NCBI GenBank assembly: GCA_039190745.1
Contig: JBCCXZ010000056.1
Coordinates: forward strand, 1 to 26,853
DNA from: Planctomycetota bacterium
Lineage (GTDB): Bacteria > Planctomycetota > Planctomycetia > Pirellulales > Lacipirellulaceae
Reading direction: 5' to 3'
Length of the DNA stretch: 26,853 nt
Shown here: positions 1,521 through 14,389 of the stretch, in pieces
Position numbering within the stretch: position 1 is the stretch's first letter
Layout: every line of letters begins with the position of its first letter
Position numbers and translations under genes: made by a program
The notes under the pieces: generated by a model
What the model saw: only the letters and a program-made list of their open reading frames with translations
Database searches by the model: none
What the model was told of the DNA's origin: nothing

Positions 1521-2804
1521 ATGCTCGACAAGCGTTTTATTCTGGAGAACGCCGAAGCGGTGCAGCAGAACTGCGACCACCGCGGCGTGAAGGCCGACGT
1601 GGCCCGGTTCGTAGAGCTCGAGACGCAGTGCAGGGCGCTGCGGCAAGAGGTCGAAGAGCTCTCGCGGCAGGCCAATCAGGTCAGCAAGTCAATCGGTAAT
1701 GCCAAAGACGACGCCGAGCGCGAGGAGCGTAAGGAAGAGGGCCGCCGGCTCCGCGAGGAGAAGGACGGCAAGCAGCAGGAGATCGACCGGCTGGACGCCG
1801 AGGCCGGCGCGATCTACCGCAGCATGCCCAACCTGACGCACCCCGAGTCGCCCATCGGCGACGAGGCGAGCAGCAAAGAGCTGAGCCGCGGGGGGACCGA
1901 GGTCCGCCGGTTTGGGTTCCCCGTGCAGGACCACGTCGAACTGGCCGGGCAGCACGACCTGGTCGACTTCGAGGGCGGGGGCCGCATCGCCGGGCACGGA
2001 TTCTATTTCTTGAAGAACGAAGCGGTGCTGCTGGAGCTGGCTCTGCAGCAGTTCACGCTTGAGCTGCTGATGGGCGAGGGCTTCGTGCCCACGATCACGC
2101 CCGACCTGGCCCGGGGCGACATCGTCGCGGGCGTGGGGTTCATCCCCCGCGGGCCGGAGACGCAGATCTACAGCATCGAGAATTTTGACCTGAACCTGGT
2201 GGCCACGGCCGAGATCACCCTGGGCGGCCTCTACGCCGGCGAGGTGCTCGACGCGGACGATCTGCCGATCAAGCTGTGCGGCATCAGCCACTGCTTCCGC
2301 ACCGAGGCGGGCGCCGCGGGCCGAGCCTCACGCGGCCTGTACCGGGTGCACCAGTTCACGAAGGTCGAGATGTTCGCCTTCACCAAGCCCGAAGAGAGCG
2401 AGGCGGTGCACCAGCAGTTCCGCGACCTGGAGTGCCGCATCTTCGACGCGTTGGGCATCCCCTACCGGGTGATCGACATCGCCACGGGCGACCTGGGCGG
2501 CCCGGCGTACCGGAAGTTCGATCTCGAGGCCTGGATGCCCGGCCGCGGCGAGGCGGACGAGTTCGGCGAGGTGACTAGCGCGAGCAACTGCACCGACTAC
2601 CAGGCCCGCCGCTTGGACATCCGCTACAAGACCAAGGGCGAGAAGGGCACCAGCTACGTGCACACGCTCAACGGCACGGCGGTGGCAATCAGCCGGGCGA
2701 TGATCGCGATCCTCGAAAACTACCAGCAGGCGGACGGGACGATCCTGGTGCCCGACGTGCTGCGGCGGTGGGTGGGGAAGGACCGGATTGGGTCGACGGG
2801 GTAG
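1521..2804 (+). CDS. serS: Serine--tRNA ligase
   Basis: MLDKRFI start at ATG 1521, N-terminal coiled-coil arm, motifs LVATAEITL, FRTEAG...GLYRVHQFTKVE, KFDLEAWMP, SASNCTDYQARR and HTLNGT. Confidence 0.98.
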   Translation: MLDKRFILENAEAVQQNCDHRGVKADVARFVELETQCRALRQEVEELSRQANQVSKSIGNAKDDAEREERKEEGRRLREEKDGKQQEIDRLDAEAGAIYRSMPNLTHPESPIGDEASSKELSRGGTEVRRFGFPVQDHVELAGQHDLVDFEGGGRIAGHGFYFLKNEAVLLELALQQFTLELLMGEGFVPTITPDLARGDIVAGVGFIPRGPETQIYSIENFDLNLVATAEITLGGLYAGEVLDADDLPIKLCGISHCFRTEAGAAGRASRGLYRVHQFTKVEMFAFTKPEESEAVHQQFRDLECRIFDALGIPYRVIDIATGDLGGPAYRKFDLEAWMPGRGEADEFGEVTSASNCTDYQARRLDIRYKTKGEKGTSYVHTLNGTAVAISRAMIAILENYQQADGTILVPDVLRRWVGKDRIGSTG

Positions 2805-3108
2805 CTGTCCGCGACACGCGACTTTAGCGAGTAGTTAAGTTGAAGGAATTACTCGCGCCCAGGGAAAGTAGACCTTTCCATCTGCTGGGGATTTTCCACC
2901 ATGCCCCGTACTTCTTCCGTGTTCTGCGTTCTTGAAACAAAAGCAGAGCAGGCTAGACTACGCCACGATTGGTCGTGAGTCGTTGGTGCAAGCACCGTGA
3001 ATTCGTTGGAGCGCTTTGAGAAGGCTATTGTCACGACGCAAGAGTATCGGGTTGCGTGAACCCAGTGCGTCTCTCGGTCGAAGAGTGAACTACACGAGGC
3101 CAGTTACT

Positions 3109-3951
3109 ATGGGAATTGACAAGAAGTCACTGCTCGCACGCGTGATCGAAGGATACGAGCGCGCAAAGAAACCTCTCGCTTACTCCGTGATGACTTTAGC
3201 GGTCGTCTTGGGCGCTTTTCCGCCGAACGTCTTGCCTGAAGGTGCCCGCACCGTTACCTACACCGCAGTGCTGCTTATTCTCTCGCTGATCCTCCTCGAA
3301 GTGCTTTTCGAGATCTACGAGCGTGTGGTAACAGAAGAGAAGCAGCTGAACCTTATCGACTCGAACGACTTGTATTCCGAGATTCTCGGCATTGTTAGCG
3401 ACAAGCGAACCGTGAACATCAAGTTTCTGGCTGTCGCTGGACGGGTAGGTTGGGTGAATGTCCTGAGTAAGCTCCTCGACAGGAATCACCCCGAGTCCCT
3501 ACCCGCGCGGCGCATCAGTTTCAAGGTTGAGGTTGCTCTCCTCGACCCCGAGTACTGCAGGGATAACGCCATCTTCGAGGAGTTTGACGTAGTCGAAAGA
3601 ACTGTAAAGAACATCAAACGCTTGCAAAAACAATTCGAAGCCCAGTCGTCGGATTCGGACGAGAGCTTCGAAATCACCCTGGCATACTACCGCCACATGC
3701 CTAATCTGCTTGGCTTTCTAGTGGACGACAACTACCTGTTCCTTACCCACAGCAATTGGGAGTTCTACGAGAAGCAGCCGATCTTGAAGGCCGGGGGATC
3801 CGATTACTTTGTATACAACCGGAGCGATGACTTTGGCGGCTCCGAGCTTATCCGAAGGTTCTCGGGTTGGTTCCAATTCATCGTGAGTAACGCTGCGAGT
3901 TCTACGCATTCCGAGCCAGCCGCTACGGAGCAGCGGCTGACTCGGAAGTAA
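3109..3951 (+). CDS. Hypothetical protein with two N-terminal TM helices and a soluble C-terminal domain (possibly PLD-like/DUF5919-like)
   Basis: 280-aa ORF from ATG 3109. Two hydrophobic stretches (LAYSVMTLAVVLGAF, VTYTAVLLILSLILLEVLF). Codon usage is more AT-rich than the flanking genes. The fold guess comes from the motif pattern LLDP...YYRHMPNLLGFLVDD and is inference. Confidence 0.75.
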   Translation: MGIDKKSLLARVIEGYERAKKPLAYSVMTLAVVLGAFPPNVLPEGARTVTYTAVLLILSLILLEVLFEIYERVVTEEKQLNLIDSNDLYSEILGIVSDKRTVNIKFLAVAGRVGWVNVLSKLLDRNHPESLPARRISFKVEVALLDPEYCRDNAIFEEFDVVERTVKNIKRLQKQFEAQSSDSDESFEITLAYYRHMPNLLGFLVDDNYLFLTHSNWEFYEKQPILKAGGSDYFVYNRSDDFGGSELIRRFSGWFQFIVSNAASSTHSEPAATEQRLTRK

Positions 3952-4022
3952 GGATGCTCGCCTCAGAGAATTGAAATATACGGCTCAGTTCAGTAGGACG
4001 CCCGGCTCTATCGCTATCGCCC

Positions 4023-5861
4023 TTACTTGATCTGCACCGTATAGGGCATCATCAACAGCGCGGGTTCCTGCAACAGCGTGCGGTGCAGGTGGGCCGCGTG
4101 GCTAAAGACGGTCTTCAGCTCCGGCGCCACGCCGCTGAGGGCGGCCATGACGTGCGCCTCGCGCTCCGCGTCGAGGTCGGCCTTGAAGATCGCCTCGAAC
4201 GGGTTCTCCGGCTTGGGCAGCACCTTCAGCTGGGCCTTCTCGTCGGCGTCGATGCCGGCGAGCTGCTTCGCCAGATTGAGGGCGTCCTTCAGCGAGCCGA
4301 GCTCGTCGACCAGGCCGAGGCGCTTGGCGACGCGGCCGGTGTAGACCTGCCCGCCGGCGTGTTTCTCGAGCTCTTCGAGCTCCATGCCGCGGCCCTCGGC
4401 GGCCTTGCTGGTGAACTGCAGGTAGATGTCCTTGAGGAACTTCTCGAAGACCTTCTTCTCCGAGTCGGAGAACTTCTCGGTGGCGGAGAAGATGCCGCTG
4501 TTCGCGCCGCGGCTGATCGTCTCGGTGTTCATGCCGATCTTGTCGTACAGCCCGCCCATGGCGATCTTGCCGCCCACGACGCCGATCGAGCCGGTGATCG
4601 TGCCGGGCTCGGCCATGATCTTGTCGGCCCCCATGGCGATGTAGTAGCCGCCGCTGCCGGCGACGTCGCCCATGCTCGCGACGATCGGCTTGTCGATAGC
4701 CTGGGTGGCCCGCCAGATCATGTCGCTCGCGAGCGCCGAGCCGCCGGGGCTGTTGATGCGGAGGACGATCGCCTTCACGGCCTCGTCTGCTGCGGCCTCC
4801 TGGAGGGCTTTGACGATCGTGTCGGAGCCCATCACCTCGCCTGCGAACGGGTCGCTCTGGCTCTTGCCGCTCATGATTGGTCCGACGGCGTAAACCAACG
4901 CGACCTTCGGCCCCTTGGCTCCACGGCCGCCGCGTGAGGCGCCCAAGATGCTCTGGAACAGCTTCATCATGCCCATTGGGCCGGAGAAGTCGGTGTCGAC
5001 CTTCTTCTTACCGTAGTTGACGACATAGACGAGCTTGTCGGCGGCGTACTCTTCTTTGAGCTGGGCGCGGAACACGTCCGGGTAAACCAGCCGGTCGACC
5101 AATCCGAGTTCCTTAGCGGCGATCGCGGTAAGCAGGCCCTGGTCGATGGCGGCCTTCGCCTCGTCGACCTTCATCTCACGGTCTTTGGCGATCGTGGTGA
5201 TCATCTGGTCGTAGAGGTCGTCGATCAGGGCGGTCATGTTCTTCTTGACGCCCTCGCTCATGCTGTCGCGGGTGTAGGGCTCGCCGGCGCCCTTGGCCTC
5301 GCCGACGTGCATGATGTCGGCCTCGAGGCCGAGCTTGGCGAGCATGTCTTTGTAGTAGGCAAACTCGCCGTGCAGGCCGGGGATCAGAATCATGCCGGAC
5401 TCGGGCATGACGACCTCGTCGCACGCGACCGCGAGCAGGTACTGCGGGGCCATCGCCATCTCGGCTACGCCGTATACCTTCTTGCCGGCTGACTGGGCGC
5501 GGGCCACAGCCTCACGCAGTTCGTTGAGCTTGCCCCAGCCGATGGCCGAGGGTTTGATCTCGAGGATGATGCCGGCGATGTTCTTGTCGCCTGCTGCCTT
5601 GTCGATGCGGGCGACCTGCTTGCGGAGGTCGACGCCTAGGTCGCCGAAGAGCGACATTTGGCCGGGCGACTCGGGCATCGCGCCCTCGATCGAAATGTGG
5701 GCCAGCCGCACCTTCTTGGGCTCGGCTTTCTTCTCCTCGGCGGCCGCGTCGGACCTGGCCGGCTTCTTGGAGGACGAGTCCTTGGCGTAGGCGATGGCGG
5801 CGGCTTGCAGCGCCATCACCATACTGAGTGCTATCGCGGTGAGTTTGATCGGCGTACGCAT
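4023..5861 (-). CDS. sppA: Signal peptide peptidase SppA, long (tandem S49 domain) form
   Basis: Start MRTPIKL at 5861, preceded by SD-like GAGGGAGA. Motifs GEAKGAGEPY (catalytic Lys region), VLRINSPGGSALASD, SMGDVAGSGGYY, TITGSIGV and GLVDELG. Confidence 0.93.
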   Translation of the reverse strand: MRTPIKLTAIALSMVMALQAAAIAYAKDSSSKKPARSDAAAEEKKAEPKKVRLAHISIEGAMPESPGQMSLFGDLGVDLRKQVARIDKAAGDKNIAGIILEIKPSAIGWGKLNELREAVARAQSAGKKVYGVAEMAMAPQYLLAVACDEVVMPESGMILIPGLHGEFAYYKDMLAKLGLEADIMHVGEAKGAGEPYTRDSMSEGVKKNMTALIDDLYDQMITTIAKDREMKVDEAKAAIDQGLLTAIAAKELGLVDRLVYPDVFRAQLKEEYAADKLVYVVNYGKKKVDTDFSGPMGMMKLFQSILGASRGGRGAKGPKVALVYAVGPIMSGKSQSDPFAGEVMGSDTIVKALQEAAADEAVKAIVLRINSPGGSALASDMIWRATQAIDKPIVASMGDVAGSGGYYIAMGADKIMAEPGTITGSIGVVGGKIAMGGLYDKIGMNTETISRGANSGIFSATEKFSDSEKKVFEKFLKDIYLQFTSKAAEGRGMELEELEKHAGGQVYTGRVAKRLGLVDELGSLKDALNLAKQLAGIDADEKAQLKVLPKPENPFEAIFKADLDAEREAHVMAALSGVAPELKTVFSHAAHLHRTLLQEPALLMMPYTVQIK

Positions 5862-7504: not shown

Positions 7505-8134
7505 ATGGCAGGCGAGACGCGTGAGCTGGTGGTAGGCACCACCAACCGATCGAAGGCGGTGGAGATCGCCGAGGTGCTCGGGCCCAAGGGCATCCGGGTG
7601 CTGACGCTCGCCGACCTCGGCCCCGCGCCCGAGGTGGTCGAGGACGGCGACTCGTTCGCCGAGCACGCCGAGAAGAAGGCGGTTGCCTACGCCCGGCACT
7701 TCCAGCGTTGGACGCTTGCGGACGACAGCGGTATTCAGGTCCACGCGCTCGGCGGGGCGCCCGGCGTCCACTCGGCCTACTTCGCCGGCCCCGACGCGAC
7801 CGACGCCGAGAACAACGCCAAGCTGCTGGAAGAACTCGCCGGCGTGTCGACCGCTAAGCGGACGGCCAACTACTTCTGCCACGTTTCGGTGGCCGACCCC
7901 ACAGGGGCGATCCGCTGCACCGCCACCGGCGTCTGCCAGGGCCGCGTGCGCGAGGAGCCCGCTGGTGCCAATGGTTTCGGCTACGACCCGTTGTTCGAGA
8001 TCGCCGAGCTGCACCAAACGTTCGGCGAATTGGGCCCGCACGTGAAGAAGATGCTCAGCCACCGCGGCCGGGCGACCCGCGCCGCGATGCGGCGTTTGGA
8101 ACAGTTGGCGGCAGCCGGCGAGTGGACGGCTTAG
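7505..8134 (+). CDS. rdgB: Non-canonical purine NTP pyrophosphatase (RdgB/HAM1)
   Basis: ATG 7505 after GGAGAGGG. Motifs TTNRSK, LADDSGI, GAPGVHSAYFAG, GFGYDPLF and SHRGRA. Confidence 0.96.
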   Translation: MAGETRELVVGTTNRSKAVEIAEVLGPKGIRVLTLADLGPAPEVVEDGDSFAEHAEKKAVAYARHFQRWTLADDSGIQVHALGGAPGVHSAYFAGPDATDAENNAKLLEELAGVSTAKRTANYFCHVSVADPTGAIRCTATGVCQGRVREEPAGANGFGYDPLFEIAELHQTFGELGPHVKKMLSHRGRATRAAMRRLEQLAAAGEWTA

Positions 8135-8197: not shown

Positions 8198-9574
8198 ATG
8201 ATGCCCGAGAGTCTACCGCAACCCGGCCCGTCCACCAATCGTTTTTCGTCGAAATCGGCACAGACTTGTTTTGTTCCGTCTCGCCTCGGTTGGGTGGCCT
8301 TGCTGTCGGTAGCTTGCTGGATGCCCGCGGCGAGCGCTGCCGAAGTCGAGGTCTGGCTTGCCAAGGAAACCCCCAGGCTTGTCCAGTTTTACCAAACCCT
8401 CCACGCATCGCCCGAACTCTCGTTCAAGGAGAAGGAAACCGCGGCCCGGATGACCGCAGAGGCGCGGCGGATGGGGTTCGAGGTGACCGAGGAGGTTGGC
8501 GGTCATGGCGTGGTCGCGGTGCTCGGAAACGGGCCAGGGAAGACGTTGCTTTTGCGGGCCGACATGGACGCGCTGCCCGTCGCCGAGGAGACCGGGCTGG
8601 AGTACGCCTCGAAAGTACGGGTCCGCGACGAGCGTGGCGCCACGGTCGGCGTGATGCACGCCTGCGGGCACGACATGCACATGACCAACCTCGTCGGCGC
8701 CCTCCGGTACCTCAACCAGTACCGGGGCCAGTGGTCGGGCACGCTGGTTGCCATGTTCCAGCCCGCCGAAGAACGCGGCGCCGGCGCCGAGGCGATGCTC
8801 GCTGACGGGCTGCTGAAGCGGTTCCCGAGGCCCGATTACGCGGTCGCCCTGCACGTGGCGGCGGACGCCGAGGCGGGCACTGTCGGGTATCGTGCCGGGT
8901 TCGCGATGGCGAACGTCGACAGCGTCGACATCACCATCCGCGGCCGCGGCGGCCACGGCGCTAACCCTTCGGCCACGATCGACCCCGTCGTCATCGCCGC
9001 CAAGCTGGTGGTCGACCTGCAGACAATCGTTAGCCGCGAGATCAGCGCGATCGAGCCGGCGGTGGTGACGGTCGGCTCGATCCACGGCGGGACGAAGCAC
9101 AACATCATCGGCGACACGTGCAAGCTGCAGCTCACCGTCCGCAGCTATACCGACGAGGTCCGCAAGCTGCTGGCCGACGCGATCCGCCGCAAGGCGAACG
9201 CCGCGGCCGCGAGCGCCGGGGCGCCGGAGCCCGAGGTGGTTTACTCCGAGGGGACGCCGGCTCTCTACAACGACCCGGAGCTCGTGGAGCGTCTGGTCCC
9301 GGTGATCGCCGCGGCGGTAGGGCAGGGGAGGGTGTTCGAGGTGGAGCAAACGATGGGCGGCGAAGACTTCGGCCGCATCGGCCGCGCGGGCGTGCCGATC
9401 GCGATGCTCCGTTTGGGGACGATCGAGAAAAGCCGGCTCGAGAAACTCACCGTCGGCGGCGCCCAACCGCCGTCGCTGCACTCGCCGCTTTACTACCCGG
9501 ATGCGGCGCCGAGCATCGAGACGGGGGTGAAGACGCTGGTGGCGGTGGCTCTTGAGTTGTTGGAGCCGGAGTAA
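8198..9574 (+). CDS. M20D family amidohydrolase with probable signal peptide
   Basis: Motifs LHASPELSFKE, LRADMDALP, MHACGHDMH, FQPAEE, GGHG, GEDF and LHSP. Hydrophobic AxA segment (WVALLSVACWMPAASA). The exact start is uncertain. Confidence 0.92.
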   Translation: MMPESLPQPGPSTNRFSSKSAQTCFVPSRLGWVALLSVACWMPAASAAEVEVWLAKETPRLVQFYQTLHASPELSFKEKETAARMTAEARRMGFEVTEEVGGHGVVAVLGNGPGKTLLLRADMDALPVAEETGLEYASKVRVRDERGATVGVMHACGHDMHMTNLVGALRYLNQYRGQWSGTLVAMFQPAEERGAGAEAMLADGLLKRFPRPDYAVALHVAADAEAGTVGYRAGFAMANVDSVDITIRGRGGHGANPSATIDPVVIAAKLVVDLQTIVSREISAIEPAVVTVGSIHGGTKHNIIGDTCKLQLTVRSYTDEVRKLLADAIRRKANAAAASAGAPEPEVVYSEGTPALYNDPELVERLVPVIAAAVGQGRVFEVEQTMGGEDFGRIGRAGVPIAMLRLGTIEKSRLEKLTVGGAQPPSLHSPLYYPDAAPSIETGVKTLVAVALELLEPE

Positions 9575-9581
9575 CGGAGCA

Positions 9582-10613
9582 GTGGCGTCTGAGACAGTTG
9601 CAAGCGAGGTTGTTGCAAAGAATCAACCATCAAGTTCAAGGACGAGGATCAAACAATTGGCAAACAATCTCTTGGATAACAACCCGCTGTGGGTGGTTGA
9701 TGTAGGCGCGAGCGGCGGCGTAGACCCCAGGTGGGGGGAGTTCACAGGATCGTATCGGGGCGTTTTGTTTGAGCCGGACCCGAGGGAGTATGATTTACTC
9801 AAGGCAAGAAGCCAGGATAATCTGATTGTTTTGAACGCCGCGTTGTCCGACTCGGCCGGTACAGTAGACTTCTACCTTTGTCAGAAACAGGAGGTGTCGT
9901 CCGCCTTCCTCCCGAACTTTGAGTTCTTGCGCAAGTTCCCTGACGCCGATCGCTTCAATGTCACACAAACCATACAGGTGCAAACGGATACTCTCGACAA
10001 CCAGCTCAAGGCTAGCGGCATCGAAGAGATTGATTTCGTCAAAGTCGACACCCAGGGGTGCGAGCTGCCTATTTTGAGGGGCGGTTCTGAGTGCCTCGGC
10101 ACCGTCGTCGGCCTAGAGCTAGAAGTTGAGTTTGCAGAGCTCTACACAAACCAACCGTTGTTTAGTGAACTGGATAGCTACGTGAGAGCGAAGGGGTTCT
10201 CGCTGTTCGATCTCAAGAGGTACTTTTGGAAACGGCTAGACGGGGCCGAGGCGGAGGATCAGAAGGGCCAGTTAGTATTTGGCGACGCCCTTTACTTCAG
10301 GGGCCCAGAACAGGTGCTCCAGATGAATGGCCTTACCCAAAACAAGGTATTGCGTGCTCTCAGTGTGTACCTAGTTTACGGGTATGTAGACCTTGCGAGA
10401 GCGTTGTTGAACGCAGCCGCGGACGGCGGGGCGATGTCGGGTGACGCCGCTCGTTCTGCCGAAGCGGTCATCGCAGACTGCGCCAAGAAAATGCGCGTGC
10501 CGAAGTTCAAGGGCAGAAAGAAGATAAGTCGAGCGCTGGAAGGGGTGTTAAGGGTTCTCGGCGGCCGCGGCGGCTGGCATGTCGGAACGGACCGATCGCT
10601 TGGGAATCCATAA
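9582..10613 (+). CDS. FkbM family SAM-dependent methyltransferase
   Basis: Motifs VVDVGASGG, FEPD, DFVKVDTQGCELPILRG, LELEVEFAELYTNQPLF and GDALY. Start uncertain (GTG 9582, or TTG 9657 after GAGGA). Lower GC than its neighbours. Confidence 0.9.
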   Translation: MASETVASEVVAKNQPSSSRTRIKQLANNLLDNNPLWVVDVGASGGVDPRWGEFTGSYRGVLFEPDPREYDLLKARSQDNLIVLNAALSDSAGTVDFYLCQKQEVSSAFLPNFEFLRKFPDADRFNVTQTIQVQTDTLDNQLKASGIEEIDFVKVDTQGCELPILRGGSECLGTVVGLELEVEFAELYTNQPLFSELDSYVRAKGFSLFDLKRYFWKRLDGAEAEDQKGQLVFGDALYFRGPEQVLQMNGLTQNKVLRALSVYLVYGYVDLARALLNAAADGGAMSGDAARSAEAVIADCAKKMRVPKFKGRKKISRALEGVLRVLGGRGGWHVGTDRSLGNP

Positions 10614-10766
10614 GCCGTCAGCGGCGAGTCAAGCGAGAGGCGGGACTCAACCATAGCCTTCGCTTGTCGCTACTAGACACCGGCAGTTGTACGGTGTCGT
10701 CAACGATTACGACAGAGCATCTCCCTGACAACAGACGCCGCTACCCGCGTTTCATGGCTACTTCGC

Positions 10767-10979
10767 TTAATCTTGTGCCTGCTCTCGAATCCTCTTTAAC
10801 CACATCAAGATCGTGGCAACGGCTATTGCCGCAAGCAACAATGCCGTCTGCCATGCGCCTTGTCCCAGTTCCATTCCGCGGACTGCCACCAGAAAGAAGC
10901 TGAACAGTGGGATCAATGTAAGGACAAGAACGGATAGCTCGGAGGCGCGCATGGTTACAACACGTTCGAGGTAGTTCAT
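10767..10979 (-). CDS. Putative small membrane protein (70 aa, two TM helices)
   Basis: MNYLERVV... contains two hydrophobic segments (LSVLVLTLIPLFSFFLVAV, TALLLAAIAVATILMWL) followed by a basic tail (KRIR). Confidence 0.55.
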   Translation of the reverse strand: MNYLERVVTMRASELSVLVLTLIPLFSFFLVAVRGMELGQGAWQTALLLAAIAVATILMWLKRIREQAQD

Positions 10980-11112
10980 TTCGAGACGCTTCAACGACTC
11001 AACGAGGCGCCATGCCCATGCTCGCGTAGGCATGTCGATAGGGAAGTGCGGCTACATACGCCTGCCCACACAGAAGCGGGCACGGTACATAGGCGAGCAG
11101 CCTCATTTAGCG

Positions 11113-11847
11113 TTACGTATCCTTTCGGTTCCGGCACGAGATCGCAAAAACTCCCAGCGCCGCGAGCGTCCACGTACCCGGTTCTGGGATCGGCAGTTGG
11201 AAAACTACGTTGTCGATCGCAATGCCGCCGACGTCGTCGTTGGTAATGACGACACCGGCGATGTCTACCGTATCTAGTTCCCGCACGAAGCCGAAAAAGC
11301 CGTTGGAGGGGAGGGGGACGGTGACGCTGTCGATGAGTGTGCCGTTCCTGCGGTAGAAATCAAAGGTGGCCCCGCCCGTCGAGGGGTCTACACCGAGAAT
11401 TTCGAGCCCGAACTCGGCGGTGTCGTCGTCAAACAAGATCGCGAGCGAGCCTTCGCCGTTGGCCGAAGCGAGCGGCCAGGCGTTCGGGCCAAGCCCTGCG
11501 ATTGCGACGATCCCGCCCACGTTGCCTACGGTGATGTTCTCTCCGACCGCCCCGGGCACCAAGGCCAACGGGTCGTTGGGCGAGCCGGACACCGTGTCGA
11601 AGTCTCCAGAGACGCCGATGGCTTGACCGGCGAAGTGCTCAGCGAAAGAGGCGCCATCGAGGTCGACTACGCCTTCAGTAGAGACACCCGGGAAAGGCGC
11701 CGAGGGCAGGCTGTTGAAATCGACAAGCCCCGTGGCCGTCAGGGAACCGTAAGGAGTCAGGTTCACGGGCAGTGCATGGCCCGACGGCGCCCACGCCGCT
11801 ACGAGAGACCAAGCGAGGAAGAGAAGGCGAAGGTAACGGATCGGCAT
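11113..11847 (-). CDS. PEP-CTERM sorting domain-containing exported protein
   Basis: Signal peptide MPIRYLRLLFLAWSLVAAWAPSGHA, acidic Gly-rich Lys-poor body, C-terminal IPEPGTWTLAALGVFAISCRNRKDT. Confidence 0.92.
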   Translation of the reverse strand: MPIRYLRLLFLAWSLVAAWAPSGHALPVNLTPYGSLTATGLVDFNSLPSAPFPGVSTEGVVDLDGASFAEHFAGQAIGVSGDFDTVSGSPNDPLALVPGAVGENITVGNVGGIVAIAGLGPNAWPLASANGEGSLAILFDDDTAEFGLEILGVDPSTGGATFDFYRRNGTLIDSVTVPLPSNGFFGFVRELDTVDIAGVVITNDDVGGIAIDNVVFQLPIPEPGTWTLAALGVFAISCRNRKDT

Positions 11848-12041
11848 GGAGTCACTCCCGGGTTGCAGTGCTAAGTTGTGGGTGAAAGCAGCGAGAATAG
11901 GATGGGGCGAGCCCCGTTCCCCGACGTGTATGCTCCGGAAGGTGACAACTTTCCGATGCACGGGGCGGTGTTGAAGATAGCCGCTCGATGGCCCGGGGCA
12001 AGAAGAATACCAGTGAGCTTGTGCGAGTTAGTTGCCGGGCG

Positions 12042-12235
12042 TCACGCGCAGTTTCGATTCCGGCGCGAAATCGCAAATAATGCCGCCACGGCGAGCGGCA
12101 GCCCCACCGATTCTGGGACGACAATCGCCGCCACGTCGATTGGTTTGAGAAAGCCCAAACCGACCACGCCGGACGTGCGGAACGGTAAGTGATGAGAAAC
12201 GGTAAGTGATGAGAGGAGAGCAGCGGCCGGTCCAT
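12042..12235 (-). pseudogene. Orphan PEP-CTERM C-terminal fragment
   Basis: Encodes VPESVGLPLAVAALFAISRRNRNCA*, the same length as the tail of the 11113 gene. Gap-free identity counted by hand is 53/77 nt (12042-12118 vs 11113-11189). No signal peptide or body lies upstream. Confidence 0.7.
12181..12214. repeat. Perfect 17-bp tandem duplication (AACGGTAAGTGATGAGA x2)
   Basis: Copies at 12181-12197 and 12198-12214. Confidence 0.95.
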
Positions 12236-12334
12236 GCGATAATCTGAAGTGCTGAGCCCGGACTGTAAGGCGGGCCGAATTCTGGAGCAAATAGAGCCCT
12301 ACTCAGAAGCCCAGGAACGGTGGCGGAGAGAACG

Positions 12335-12377
12335 AGCGGCCGATGGACGCAGACGGACGCAGACGGACGCAGACAAG
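12335..12377 (+). repeat. Left arm of inverted-repeat element, containing (GGACGCAGAC)x3
   Basis: AGCGGCCGAT-GGACGCAGAC x3-AAG, an inverted match to 13013-13045. Confidence 0.85.
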
Positions 12378-12474
12378 TCCCTCGGGTGCGCTGACTGTCG
12401 GCCGGGAACGGTATTGCTCCAGGACCGGAGGCATTGCGGCTAGGCCAGGCGCCGCTGCCGCAGTGCGGGTCTGC

Positions 12475-12960
12475 TCATTCACTCGGTCGCAATGCGGAAA
12501 TGACGCGCTGCAGTTCTTCGCTCGTGCCAAGGTGGTTCTGGTGGCGGAAGTACTTCAGTAACCGCCGTCGTAATTCATCGTTGATCGTGACGTGCCTGCC
12601 GTTGTCTTCCATCAGGCGGATCAGCCAATCGACCCCGCCGTATGTGATGAGGTCGTACGGCTCGATATCGACGATCATCTCGATGATCGCCTGGCCGATA
12701 TTGCCGTACTCGGCCATCAGAGCTTCGAAGCCGGGGTGATAATCGTCTCCGGTGACGAAGAAACGGTCGCCGATCCAACTCCCGACGAGCGGGTGGGGTT
12801 CGACGCCCGTGTAGTACGTGTTGTTCTGCAAGAGCAAGTACGAAAGGGCTCGCGAACCTATGTTGCGTCCTAGCGCATAGTTCTTGATGTCCGAGCCGGT
12901 GGGGTCGATGCAGAAGTACTGCCGTTTCGAATCATTCACGTAGAAATAGTAAGTGCCCAT
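12475..12960 (-). CDS. Hypothetical protein (161 aa), cargo between inverted repeats
   Basis: MGTYYFYVNDSKRQYF... The N-terminus and the GSWIGDR...GDD segment resemble a pattern I recall from small phage/accessory proteins (MGQYY..VN..K.EY); this was not verified by search. Confidence 0.8.
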   Translation of the reverse strand: MGTYYFYVNDSKRQYFCIDPTGSDIKNYALGRNIGSRALSYLLLQNNTYYTGVEPHPLVGSWIGDRFFVTGDDYHPGFEALMAEYGNIGQAIIEMIVDIEPYDLITYGGVDWLIRLMEDNGRHVTINDELRRRLLKYFRHQNHLGTSEELQRVISALRPSE

Positions 12961-13012
12961 GCGACCCAGCAACCAGCTTGGCGGCTGCCTCTAGGATTTC
13001 GGCTAGCGAGCG

Positions 13013-13045
13013 CTTGTCAGCGTTTATCTGCGCCCATCGGTGGCT
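13013..13045 (-). repeat. Right arm of inverted-repeat element
   Basis: Reverse complement reads AGCCACCGAT-GGGCGCAGAT-AAACGCTGAC-AAG and matches 12335-12377 unit by unit. It begins 4 bp after the oppC stop codon. Confidence 0.8.
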
Positions 13046-13049
13046 AGTT

Positions 13050-14264
13050 TCACTGCGTCCGCATCCGCGGGTCGAGCGCGTCACGCAGACCGTCCCCCAA
13101 GAAGTTGAGCGCCGTGAGCGTCACGCCCAACGCGATGCTCGGGAACACCACCAGCCACCAGTCGAATCGCACCGGCGTGATGACCTGGATGCCCTGGTTC
13201 GCCAGTAGGCCCCACGAGACCTCCGGCGGCTCGACGCCCAGGCCCAGGAACGAGAGGAACGCCTCGAACAGCATCACGCGGGGGATGGTGAGCGTGAGGT
13301 AAACGATCACCACGCTGAACAGGTTCGGCACGATGTGTAGGAACAAGATCCGGGCTTGCCCGGCGCCGAGCGACCGGGCCGCCTCGACGAAGGGCTCGGT
13401 CTTGAGCGAGATCACCTGCCCGCGGACCACCCGGGCCATGGTGAGCCAGTAGATGGCGCCCACCACGAAGAAGAACACTGTGACGCGGTCGATGCCGAAC
13501 CGGGCCAGCCGGTCGGCGACGCTCTCCTCGCCGAGGATAGTGATGATGAAAATGACCACGAACACGAACGGCACGGAGTAGAGCACGTCGACGGCCCGCA
13601 TCATCGCGTCGTCGACCCAGCCGCCGAGGTAACCGGAGACGGCCCCGTAGGTCACGCCGATCACCAGCGAGACGATCGTTGCCACGAGCCCCACCAGCAG
13701 CGAGGTGCGAGCGCCCCAGAACAGCCGGCTGAACAGGTCGCGGCCGAACAGGTCGCGGCCGCAGAGGGCGTTGACGCTGCGGTCGCCGAACAGGCTGTGC
13801 CGCGTGCGGACCATCCAGCGGGAGAGGCCGCCAAGGTTGGCGAAGCCCTGTTCGCGATAAGGCGCCTGGACGGTGTCTTCGATCTGGGCCTCGAGTCGCC
13901 GGACGGCGTCGCGGGCCTTTGAGTGGGCCTGCTCGTCGGCAGGGTCGACGCTGGCCAGCGCGGTCTCCGCTTCGGCGAGCTTCGGCTCGAGCTCCGCGAC
14001 GGCGTCGGGCGTGGCGGCGATCGCCTCGGTGTCGAGGTCGAAGTCGTGCAGCCAGAAGGGCGAGGCGGTTGGCTTTTCAAACTGCAGGCTGGTCTGGTCA
14101 CGGTCGGGCGGCTGCAAGGGCAACAACGGCGTGGACAACGCCAAGAGCGACACCGCCCCCAATACGTACAGCGAGACCATCGCCACGCGGTTGCGGCGCA
14201 GTTTGCGCCAGGCGTCCTGCGTGAGCGAAAGCCCCTTCGGCGTGTTGGGAGCGGGAGTCTGCAA
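13050..14264 (-). CDS. oppC: Oligopeptide ABC transporter permease
   Basis: SLTQDAWRKLRRNRVA, GRDLFGRDLFSRL, EAA motif (FVEAARSLGA), EAFLSFLGLG and NFLGDGLRDALDPR. TTG start. Confidence 0.93.
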   Translation of the reverse strand: MQTPAPNTPKGLSLTQDAWRKLRRNRVAMVSLYVLGAVSLLALSTPLLPLQPPDRDQTSLQFEKPTASPFWLHDFDLDTEAIAATPDAVAELEPKLAEAETALASVDPADEQAHSKARDAVRRLEAQIEDTVQAPYREQGFANLGGLSRWMVRTRHSLFGDRSVNALCGRDLFGRDLFSRLFWGARTSLLVGLVATIVSLVIGVTYGAVSGYLGGWVDDAMMRAVDVLYSVPFVFVVIFIITILGEESVADRLARFGIDRVTVFFFVVGAIYWLTMARVVRGQVISLKTEPFVEAARSLGAGQARILFLHIVPNLFSVVIVYLTLTIPRVMLFEAFLSFLGLGVEPPEVSWGLLANQGIQVITPVRFDWWLVVFPSIALGVTLTALNFLGDGLRDALDPRMRTQ

Positions 14265-14278
14265 TTGATTCAGAAAAC

Positions 14279-14346
14279 AGGAACACGAATCTGCACTAAT
14301 TCTCGCTAATCCGGATTAGTGAAGATTAGCTTTGATTAGTGTTCCT
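14279..14346. repeat. Imperfect ~68-bp palindrome built from CTAAT/GAAT subrepeats
   Basis: Left arm GGAACACGAATCTGCACTAATTCTCGCTAATCC versus reverse complement of the right arm GGAACACTAATCAAAGCTAATCTTCACTAATCC. The arms are equal in length, have no spacer and are centred on CCGG. Confidence 0.9.
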
Positions 14347-14361
14347 AATCTCTTCCTCTTC

Positions 14362-14389
14362 CTTTCGTTGTTTTCGTTTCTTTCGTGGT
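14362..14389 (-). repeat. Solo arm with three ACGAAA units at 9-bp period
   Basis: TTTCGT occurs at 14363, 14372 and 14381. On the minus strand ACCACGAAAGAAACGAAAACAACGAAAG directly follows the oppB stop codon. Confidence 0.85.

Follow-up and report, generated by a model that had tools for sequence, protein, structure and literature searches.

The oppC gene of the window, i.e., the whole 26,853-nucleotide stretch of DNA analyzed here (contig C56 of the present genome, G000), is followed by one small gene enclosed between two inverted arms of 10-bp units. This arrangement raises the question of whether arms and gene moved in together as a unit, or whether the arms were already in place and only the DNA between them changed. 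Direct reading of the positions reproduces the arm sequences and their placement exactly as given in the original prediction. The downstream arm comprises four 10-bp units (12335–12374, + strand) and the upstream arm three (13016–13045, − strand), with AAG after each, and the pair forms the longest inverted repeat of positions 11500–14000 (34 nt, 76% complementary, spacing 651 nt). The upstream arm starts 4 nt past the oppC stop codon and the enclosed 161-aa ORF has the same orientation as the opp genes, both as predicted (Table 1). The product of oppC is identified as OppC by Pfam PF00528 and PF12911, while the labels secA, top6B, ald, mtnA, mnmA, xerC-like, amidohydrolase, HicA-like and ParDE-like are presumptive and were assigned from the look of the sequences. 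One contig assembled from sequencing run X1, which may have been the source of the present DNA, covers positions 11000–13625 with zero differences, and no credible joint skipping the cargo gene was found in the X1 contigs, a type of assembly that drops rare variants. A scan of positions 11900–13200 with a model that may not suit the host organism gave no match to a sigma-70-type promoter. In what follows, G001 denotes the sister species, the sole other genome of the genus, and L-numbers denote fetched loci.

Table 1. Coordinates of the oppC-proximal element and its neighbors in the window.
Feature	Position	Strand	Remark
Downstream arm, four units, three of them identical	12335..12377	+	32 bits; of the paired arms above 25 bits, the most diverged
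Trailer of the inserted segment	12378..12474	−	Without attC-like fold; second genomic copy not found
Cargo gene, 161 aa, no Pfam or PHROG match	12475..12960	−	attC-like arrays around some homologues
Leader of the inserted segment	12961..12992	−	Absent from G001
23-bp interior in common with the empty element of the sister species	12993..13015	−	17/23 identical in L016
Upstream arm, three 10-bp units, family A	13016..13045	−	Profile 40 bits; orthologous arm in G001
Host gene oppC, located upstream of the slot	13050..14264	−	Pfam; 95% identical in G001
Junction upstream of oppC: sibling element with nested E-family and C-family arms	14284..14387	.	Also in G001

Triple-repeat arms and GxxExxY genes

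A profile of the arm, seeded from 22 copies in G000 and iterated once, identifies 28 strong sites (25 bits or more) in this genome as opposed to two in a reversed-genome control, where the best match reaches 28.9 bits. The G000 arms resolve into 10 inverted pairs and nine single arms, with the partner arm on contig C3 lying below the 25-bit threshold, so the motif does recur in paired inverted orientation, on which the original prediction depended. Nearly all arms are intergenic, and many begin within 12 nt of a stop codon. The interiors of the 10 pairs are short and gene-less in six cases, hold a GxxExxY gene in one and carry other ORFs (55, 95, and 161 aa) in the remaining three. Several sibling arm families are also present in G000 and are often nested within each other, as at 14284–14387. 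Beyond this genome, an 18-nt arm pattern was found in 89 of 120 family genomes (control matches: 0), and a 28-nt pattern in 33 stretches of viral contigs, many of which are short empty pairs.

A link between such arms and GxxExxY genes, which had been suggested in the original prediction, is upheld by several comparisons. All six PF13366 matches in G000 have triple-repeat arms nearby, one of them being cut by a contig end and another containing an internal stop with an arm pair downstream. A bracketing inverted repeat was detected at 32 of 37 GxxExxY loci (37 of 38 could be scored) vs. 4 of 200 random small genes, where two of the four control positives are a GxxExxY gene and the present cargo. 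Family-A arms surround PF13366 genes on C3 in G000, at L086 and L088 in G001, and at L160, L162, and L190. Two or more arm matches occur in 72 of 112 genomes with PF13366 and in none of eight without it, counted over related genomes that are not independent. Furthermore, on a tree of 37 GxxExxY proteins, which takes in related genomes and two pairs of orthologues, the arm type as assigned by eye requires 9 changes compared to 20.9 after shuffling, and the six proteins with family-A arms fall on the same side of a moderately supported branch (92/78; recovered in 90% of bootstrap trees). These sequence comparisons show that arm type is linked to nuclease lineage; the pattern on the tree would also arise if nuclease and arms were co-inherited as a unit. 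In the accessible part of one survey, PF13366 is listed as being of unknown function with many horizontal transfers (PMC3424549), and the sole bacterial mention of GxxExxY found, in the available text of a second source, is a Cas4-like call (10.1101/2021.01.26.428298). The literature covered, mostly main texts of open-access articles, contains no description of such arms or of a role for GxxExxY genes. From the oppC locus, the PF13366 family gains a candidate substrate and a testable role.

Interiors of orthologous arm sites

In the sister species, the region after oppC holds an arm pair with an interior of ~40 bp and no gene, and the flanks are homologous on either side. The first 23 inner bases next to the upstream arm are identical between G000 and G001 (L016) at 17 positions (p about 2e-5), whereas other family-A interiors of G000 reach 13/23 at most. 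Since the upstream arm, together with the 23 bases adjoining it, has its orthologue in the empty sister element, the change occurred within a resident element; the arm pair at oppC predates the split of G000 and G001 and was present in their common ancestor. From 23 bp inside the upstream arm the two genomes diverge, and G000 carries a segment of ~600 bp with one foreign gene. The downstream arm of G000 differs from its G001 counterpart and may therefore have come with the cargo. A gain in G000 would be the more parsimonious direction, the alternative being a loss in the sister species. In G007, which belongs to another genus, the arm pair after oppC encloses an unrelated ORF of 77 aa, so that both the empty and the differently filled versions for which the original prediction proposed to search in relatives do exist. 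A match to oppC was obtained in 100 genomes; at the best 30 of these loci, an arm-type motif was found within 130 nt in 11 cases (one looks false by eye), as compared to 34 of 1180 shuffles, and a gene lies within an arm pair at two of the 30 loci (G000 and G007). Because the arm family at oppC varies between genera, the site has probably been colonized several times.

The surroundings of oppC differ between genomes in further respects. Positions 9575–13049 form a variable zone where G000 contains an FkbM methyltransferase gene, a PEP-CTERM gene, a remnant and the cargo, while homologues of the genes at 7505–8134 or 8321–9574 are the immediate convergent neighbors of oppC in many relatives. 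The remnant (12042–12180, − strand) represents only the 3′ end of a 324-aa PEP-CTERM gene, which in G001 follows the slot, and is adjoined by a 17-bp tandem duplication at about 12176–12213. At 2804–4023, a junction with a 311-aa ORF corresponds to a stretch of different length with another ORF in G001.

Exchange of interiors extends to other junctions. Out of 25 strong family-A sites in G001, 24 were fetched and 11 were aligned to G000; five pairs and one single arm proved alike, while the other five sites differ. Three of the differing sites have a gene in G000 and none in G001, with contig C72 as a fourth such case; oppC aside, G000 sites with a gene that is missing at the same arm site in G001 number three. 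One further site holds a GxxExxY gene in G001 and other repeats in G000. At C72 the outer arms are orthologous and enclose a whole D-arm pair with a 105-aa gene in G000 vs. an E element in G001, and the arm pair found at C35 with an 80-aa gene is missing in G001. Two cargo regions of G000, used as DNA queries against G001, returned no orthologous stretch.

Nine widely spaced pairs were fetched from five other genomes, of which one brackets a long host-like gene and one consists of two short elements. The remaining seven are long single-gene family-A pairs; one contains GxxExxY and six contain one or two other small ORFs, including HicB-like (PF15919) and barstar-like (PF01337) genes. The flanks of the fetched pairs identify the same junctions as in G000 with different contents. 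At one common junction, family-A arms enclose GxxExxY in G000 and G001 and a HicB-like pair in G005, and after secA the cargo between family-A arms is a 55-aa, a 78-aa or a barstar-like gene. It is this exchange of unrelated cargo at orthologous arm sites that the oppC locus adds.

Other single-gene differences were observed along the way. A gene pair which we take to be ParDE-like follows secA in L245, L252, L260, and L264, with a single arm in two of the genomes and none in the other two, and only its first gene is left in L264. On C44 of G000 (L063:1063–1638), a 191-aa cargo in mixed arms, absent from G001, shows a PD-(D/E)XK-like motif by eye, no Pfam match and no similarity to GxxExxY. 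In L119 of G001, the orthologue of G000 C36:18360, a tight junction has received a 129-aa gene, which is followed by a different repeat; the product of the gene presumably is a four-helix-bundle protein.

A proposed resident slot and its alternatives

On balance, we lean toward a nuclease-linked repeat slot that is resident and has its interior exchanged in place, as opposed to a unit moving with its gene. As far as the alignments reach, they demonstrate resident arms, a variable interior and unrelated cargo at the same junctions. The oppC arms would represent a gene-less type of copy of a dispersed element whose full form would consist of two inverted triple-repeat arms flanking a gene for a GxxExxY (PF13366, PD-(D/E)XK) nuclease. 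These elements would settle just behind stop codons and then stay, with their interior being exchanged. Most likely, the cognate nuclease recognizes double-stranded DNA, binding to the arm units and cutting just inside them, and the ensuing repair may take up other DNA. This could be another arm element, leading to nested forms, or one foreign gene. The opp transcript probably serves for expression of the cargo as well. Several points count against this explanation, namely the result for shorter alleles and the three of eight arm-less secA junctions described below, the arm-less locus L150, and the 3′ side of oppC, which is variable anyway.

The association of arms with gene turnover was assessed at 525 conserved junctions covering about 1.2 Mb of G001, using a crude extra-ORF criterion and a set that excludes the oppC site. 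An extra ORF, reflecting gene gain or loss, occurs at 11 of 31 junctions with arms vs. 57 of 494 without (p = 8e-4), while counting arms in the shorter allele only yields 6/24 vs. 62/501, which is not significant (p = 0.11). After secA, where loci were counted by eye and one truncated locus was left out, junctions carrying an extra gene had an arm in 5 of 8 cases vs. 1 of 21 for those lacking one (p = 0.003), which leaves three of the eight arm-less. By these counts, arms go along with gene turnover, which also takes place without them.

The original prediction of a non-autonomous gene-capture element stands insofar as paired arms recur and empty and refilled sites exist; that arms and cargo move as one unit is not borne out. 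A unit assembled elsewhere and moved whole, or a filled ancestral form from which empty forms arose by interior deletion, appears unlikely to us. Whole arm pairs with a gene do differ between the two species at C72 and C35, arms occur in viral contigs, and the different arm families at oppC in different genera imply that arms do move. At oppC, however, orthology to the empty site covers the upstream arm and 23 inner bases, and a target-site duplication is absent: across 10 pairs the mean flanking repeat is 1.1 nt vs. 1.4 nt for mismatched flanks and 0 at oppC, with the proviso that old sites may have lost it. Moreover, arms were found at none of the 14 cargo homologue loci tested (of 15), and no cargo was found at two non-orthologous arm sites, the only related pair (L188 and L192) being located at one and the same junction.

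Quite improbable, in our estimate, is a generic hotspot in which operon 3′ ends gather repeats and small foreign genes independently, such that the bracketing results from position alone. Insertions without arms exist, 57 of 494 arm-less junctions differ by a gene, the contrast is not significant for shorter alleles, and G000 has several extra genes downstream of oppC where many relatives run straight into a convergent neighbor. Yet the insertion sits between the arms and not beside them, six of the seven long single-gene family-A pairs of other genomes hold one or two small non-GxxExxY ORFs, and the secA contrast points away from position alone. Very improbable is an RNA-level device, in which base-pairing of the arms in the transcript would lead RNase III to excise or process the gene between them in the manner of an intervening sequence: the fold predicted for the 728-nt sense strand does bring the two arms together (z −2.9, 20 shuffles) and the layout resembles ORF-bearing intervening sequences as described in the available text of PMC4990558, but G-U vs. 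A-C mismatches on the sense strand (53 vs. 63 over 33 pairs, p = 0.40) show no excess and the window pair is only 76% complementary.

Extending the resident slot beyond this locus is more tentative. GxxExxY nucleases and clade-specific triple-repeat arms could possibly constitute an integrase-free gene-acquisition system with dozens of refillable single-gene slots behind stop codons. The nuclease would open the DNA of such a slot inside its arms, and the foreign genes admitted there, be they cassette-type genes, toxin-antitoxin pairs, or inhibitors, would be expressed from host operons. If the arms mark refillable slots, bacteria would possess a dispersed equivalent of the integron that works with no attC and no recombinase, and many small low-GC genes lodged within conserved operons would find an explanation. 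The locus points to an undescribed route for single genes into bacterial operons.

The cargo gene and known mobile systems

The cargo gene had been regarded as an orphan, which does not hold, given 39 homologues besides its own record and 205 profile matches among 50%-identity representatives. It was detected in two of the 120 family genomes. The closest homologue, L150 (75%), lies behind a core recombinase gene and lacks arms; the differences between the two genes by codon position (30, 16, and 80) indicate purifying selection. The predicted structure of the product is confident (pLDDT 91.9) and matches two uncharacterized phage proteins (E 1.8e-5 and 7.3e-5). No match to the model was found in the PDB by Foldseek, and the best VIA Z is 4.1, which shows neither a new nor a different fold. 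Searches with Pfam found no family for the cargo and none in common to 47 distant homologues, PHROG none for the window protein (best member match E 0.02), and the ESM Atlas no usable match; homologues were not found in viral contigs with the patterns used. Dating by base composition was abandoned: GC3 is 0.76 for the cargo, 0.53–0.65 for close homologues and 0.86 for the host median, and a cargo common to both species itself has 0.57 and 0.69. The leader matches a coding gene on C25 over 20 nt, which was taken as chance. Many stretches of three proteins of 2061–5535 aa (P0050, P0062, and P0110) match the C-terminal half of the cargo profile, possibly spuriously.

Integron cassettes are typically single promoter-less small genes of varied kind, co-oriented with the upstream transcript and accompanied by attC sites. 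The present cargo resembles them as a single small co-oriented gene whose family occurs in attC-like arrays: a homologue in L007 is next to a strong attC-like fold, that in L010 lies in an array of such repeats, and a truncated repeat is seen by eye in L152. In contrast, the trailer in the window shows no attC-like fold (z +0.4 and +0.6 vs. −7.1 and −3.6 beside homologues; the motif-plus-fold scan was empty), and TIGR02249 gave eight weak matches for an integron integrase in G000 (95% complete), none over the cut-off. Furthermore, the present slots are dispersed, with one per junction and no array.

REPIN-RAYT systems, in the accessible parts of the descriptions, likewise consist of inverted doublets with a variable spacer that are dispersed between genes (PMC3116915; PMC3733652), and their repeat groups are tied to enzyme lineages encoded between or beside the repeats (PMC3733652). 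The similarity is one of layout, the enzymology of the present element being putative. The present arms differ in being purine-rich tandem units instead of hairpins, as single-arm folds are no better than shuffles in four of five cases (z −0.7 to 0.3; the four-unit window arm has z −2.2 and a broken stem). Their interiors carry whole foreign genes, the linked enzyme is PF13366, and no GTAG or CGTC tag of REPIN repeats was seen in the arm sequences.

MITEs and MITE-bounded carriers such as IMU share non-coding inverted ends, empty and filled sites and a candidate enzyme acting in trans, according to the available text of PMC3184786. The enzyme gene found between the present arms, however, encodes a PD-(D/E)XK nuclease instead of a transposase, and the arms stay while the interior changes; the genes found between family-A arms were either PF13366 or small ORFs unrelated to it. 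Intervening sequences with an ORF in 23S rRNA, as presented in the part of PMC4990558 seen, are similar in having one small ORF and complementary ends within a host transcript. They differ from the present element, which follows oppC in a protein-coding operon, shows no sign of selection on an RNA stem and varies in its cargo. Because REPINs, MITEs, integron cassettes and intervening sequences each have a defining feature that was looked for and is lacking here, the element is set apart as its own class.

G000 also contains other REP-like palindrome families, for example at C11:13996–14484, at C64:12566–12946, and at junctions on C29 and C54; the RAYT (Y1) transposase PF01797 was not found in this genome (95% complete), the only one searched for it. 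Some of these palindromes bracket single genes and some lie inside arm pairs.
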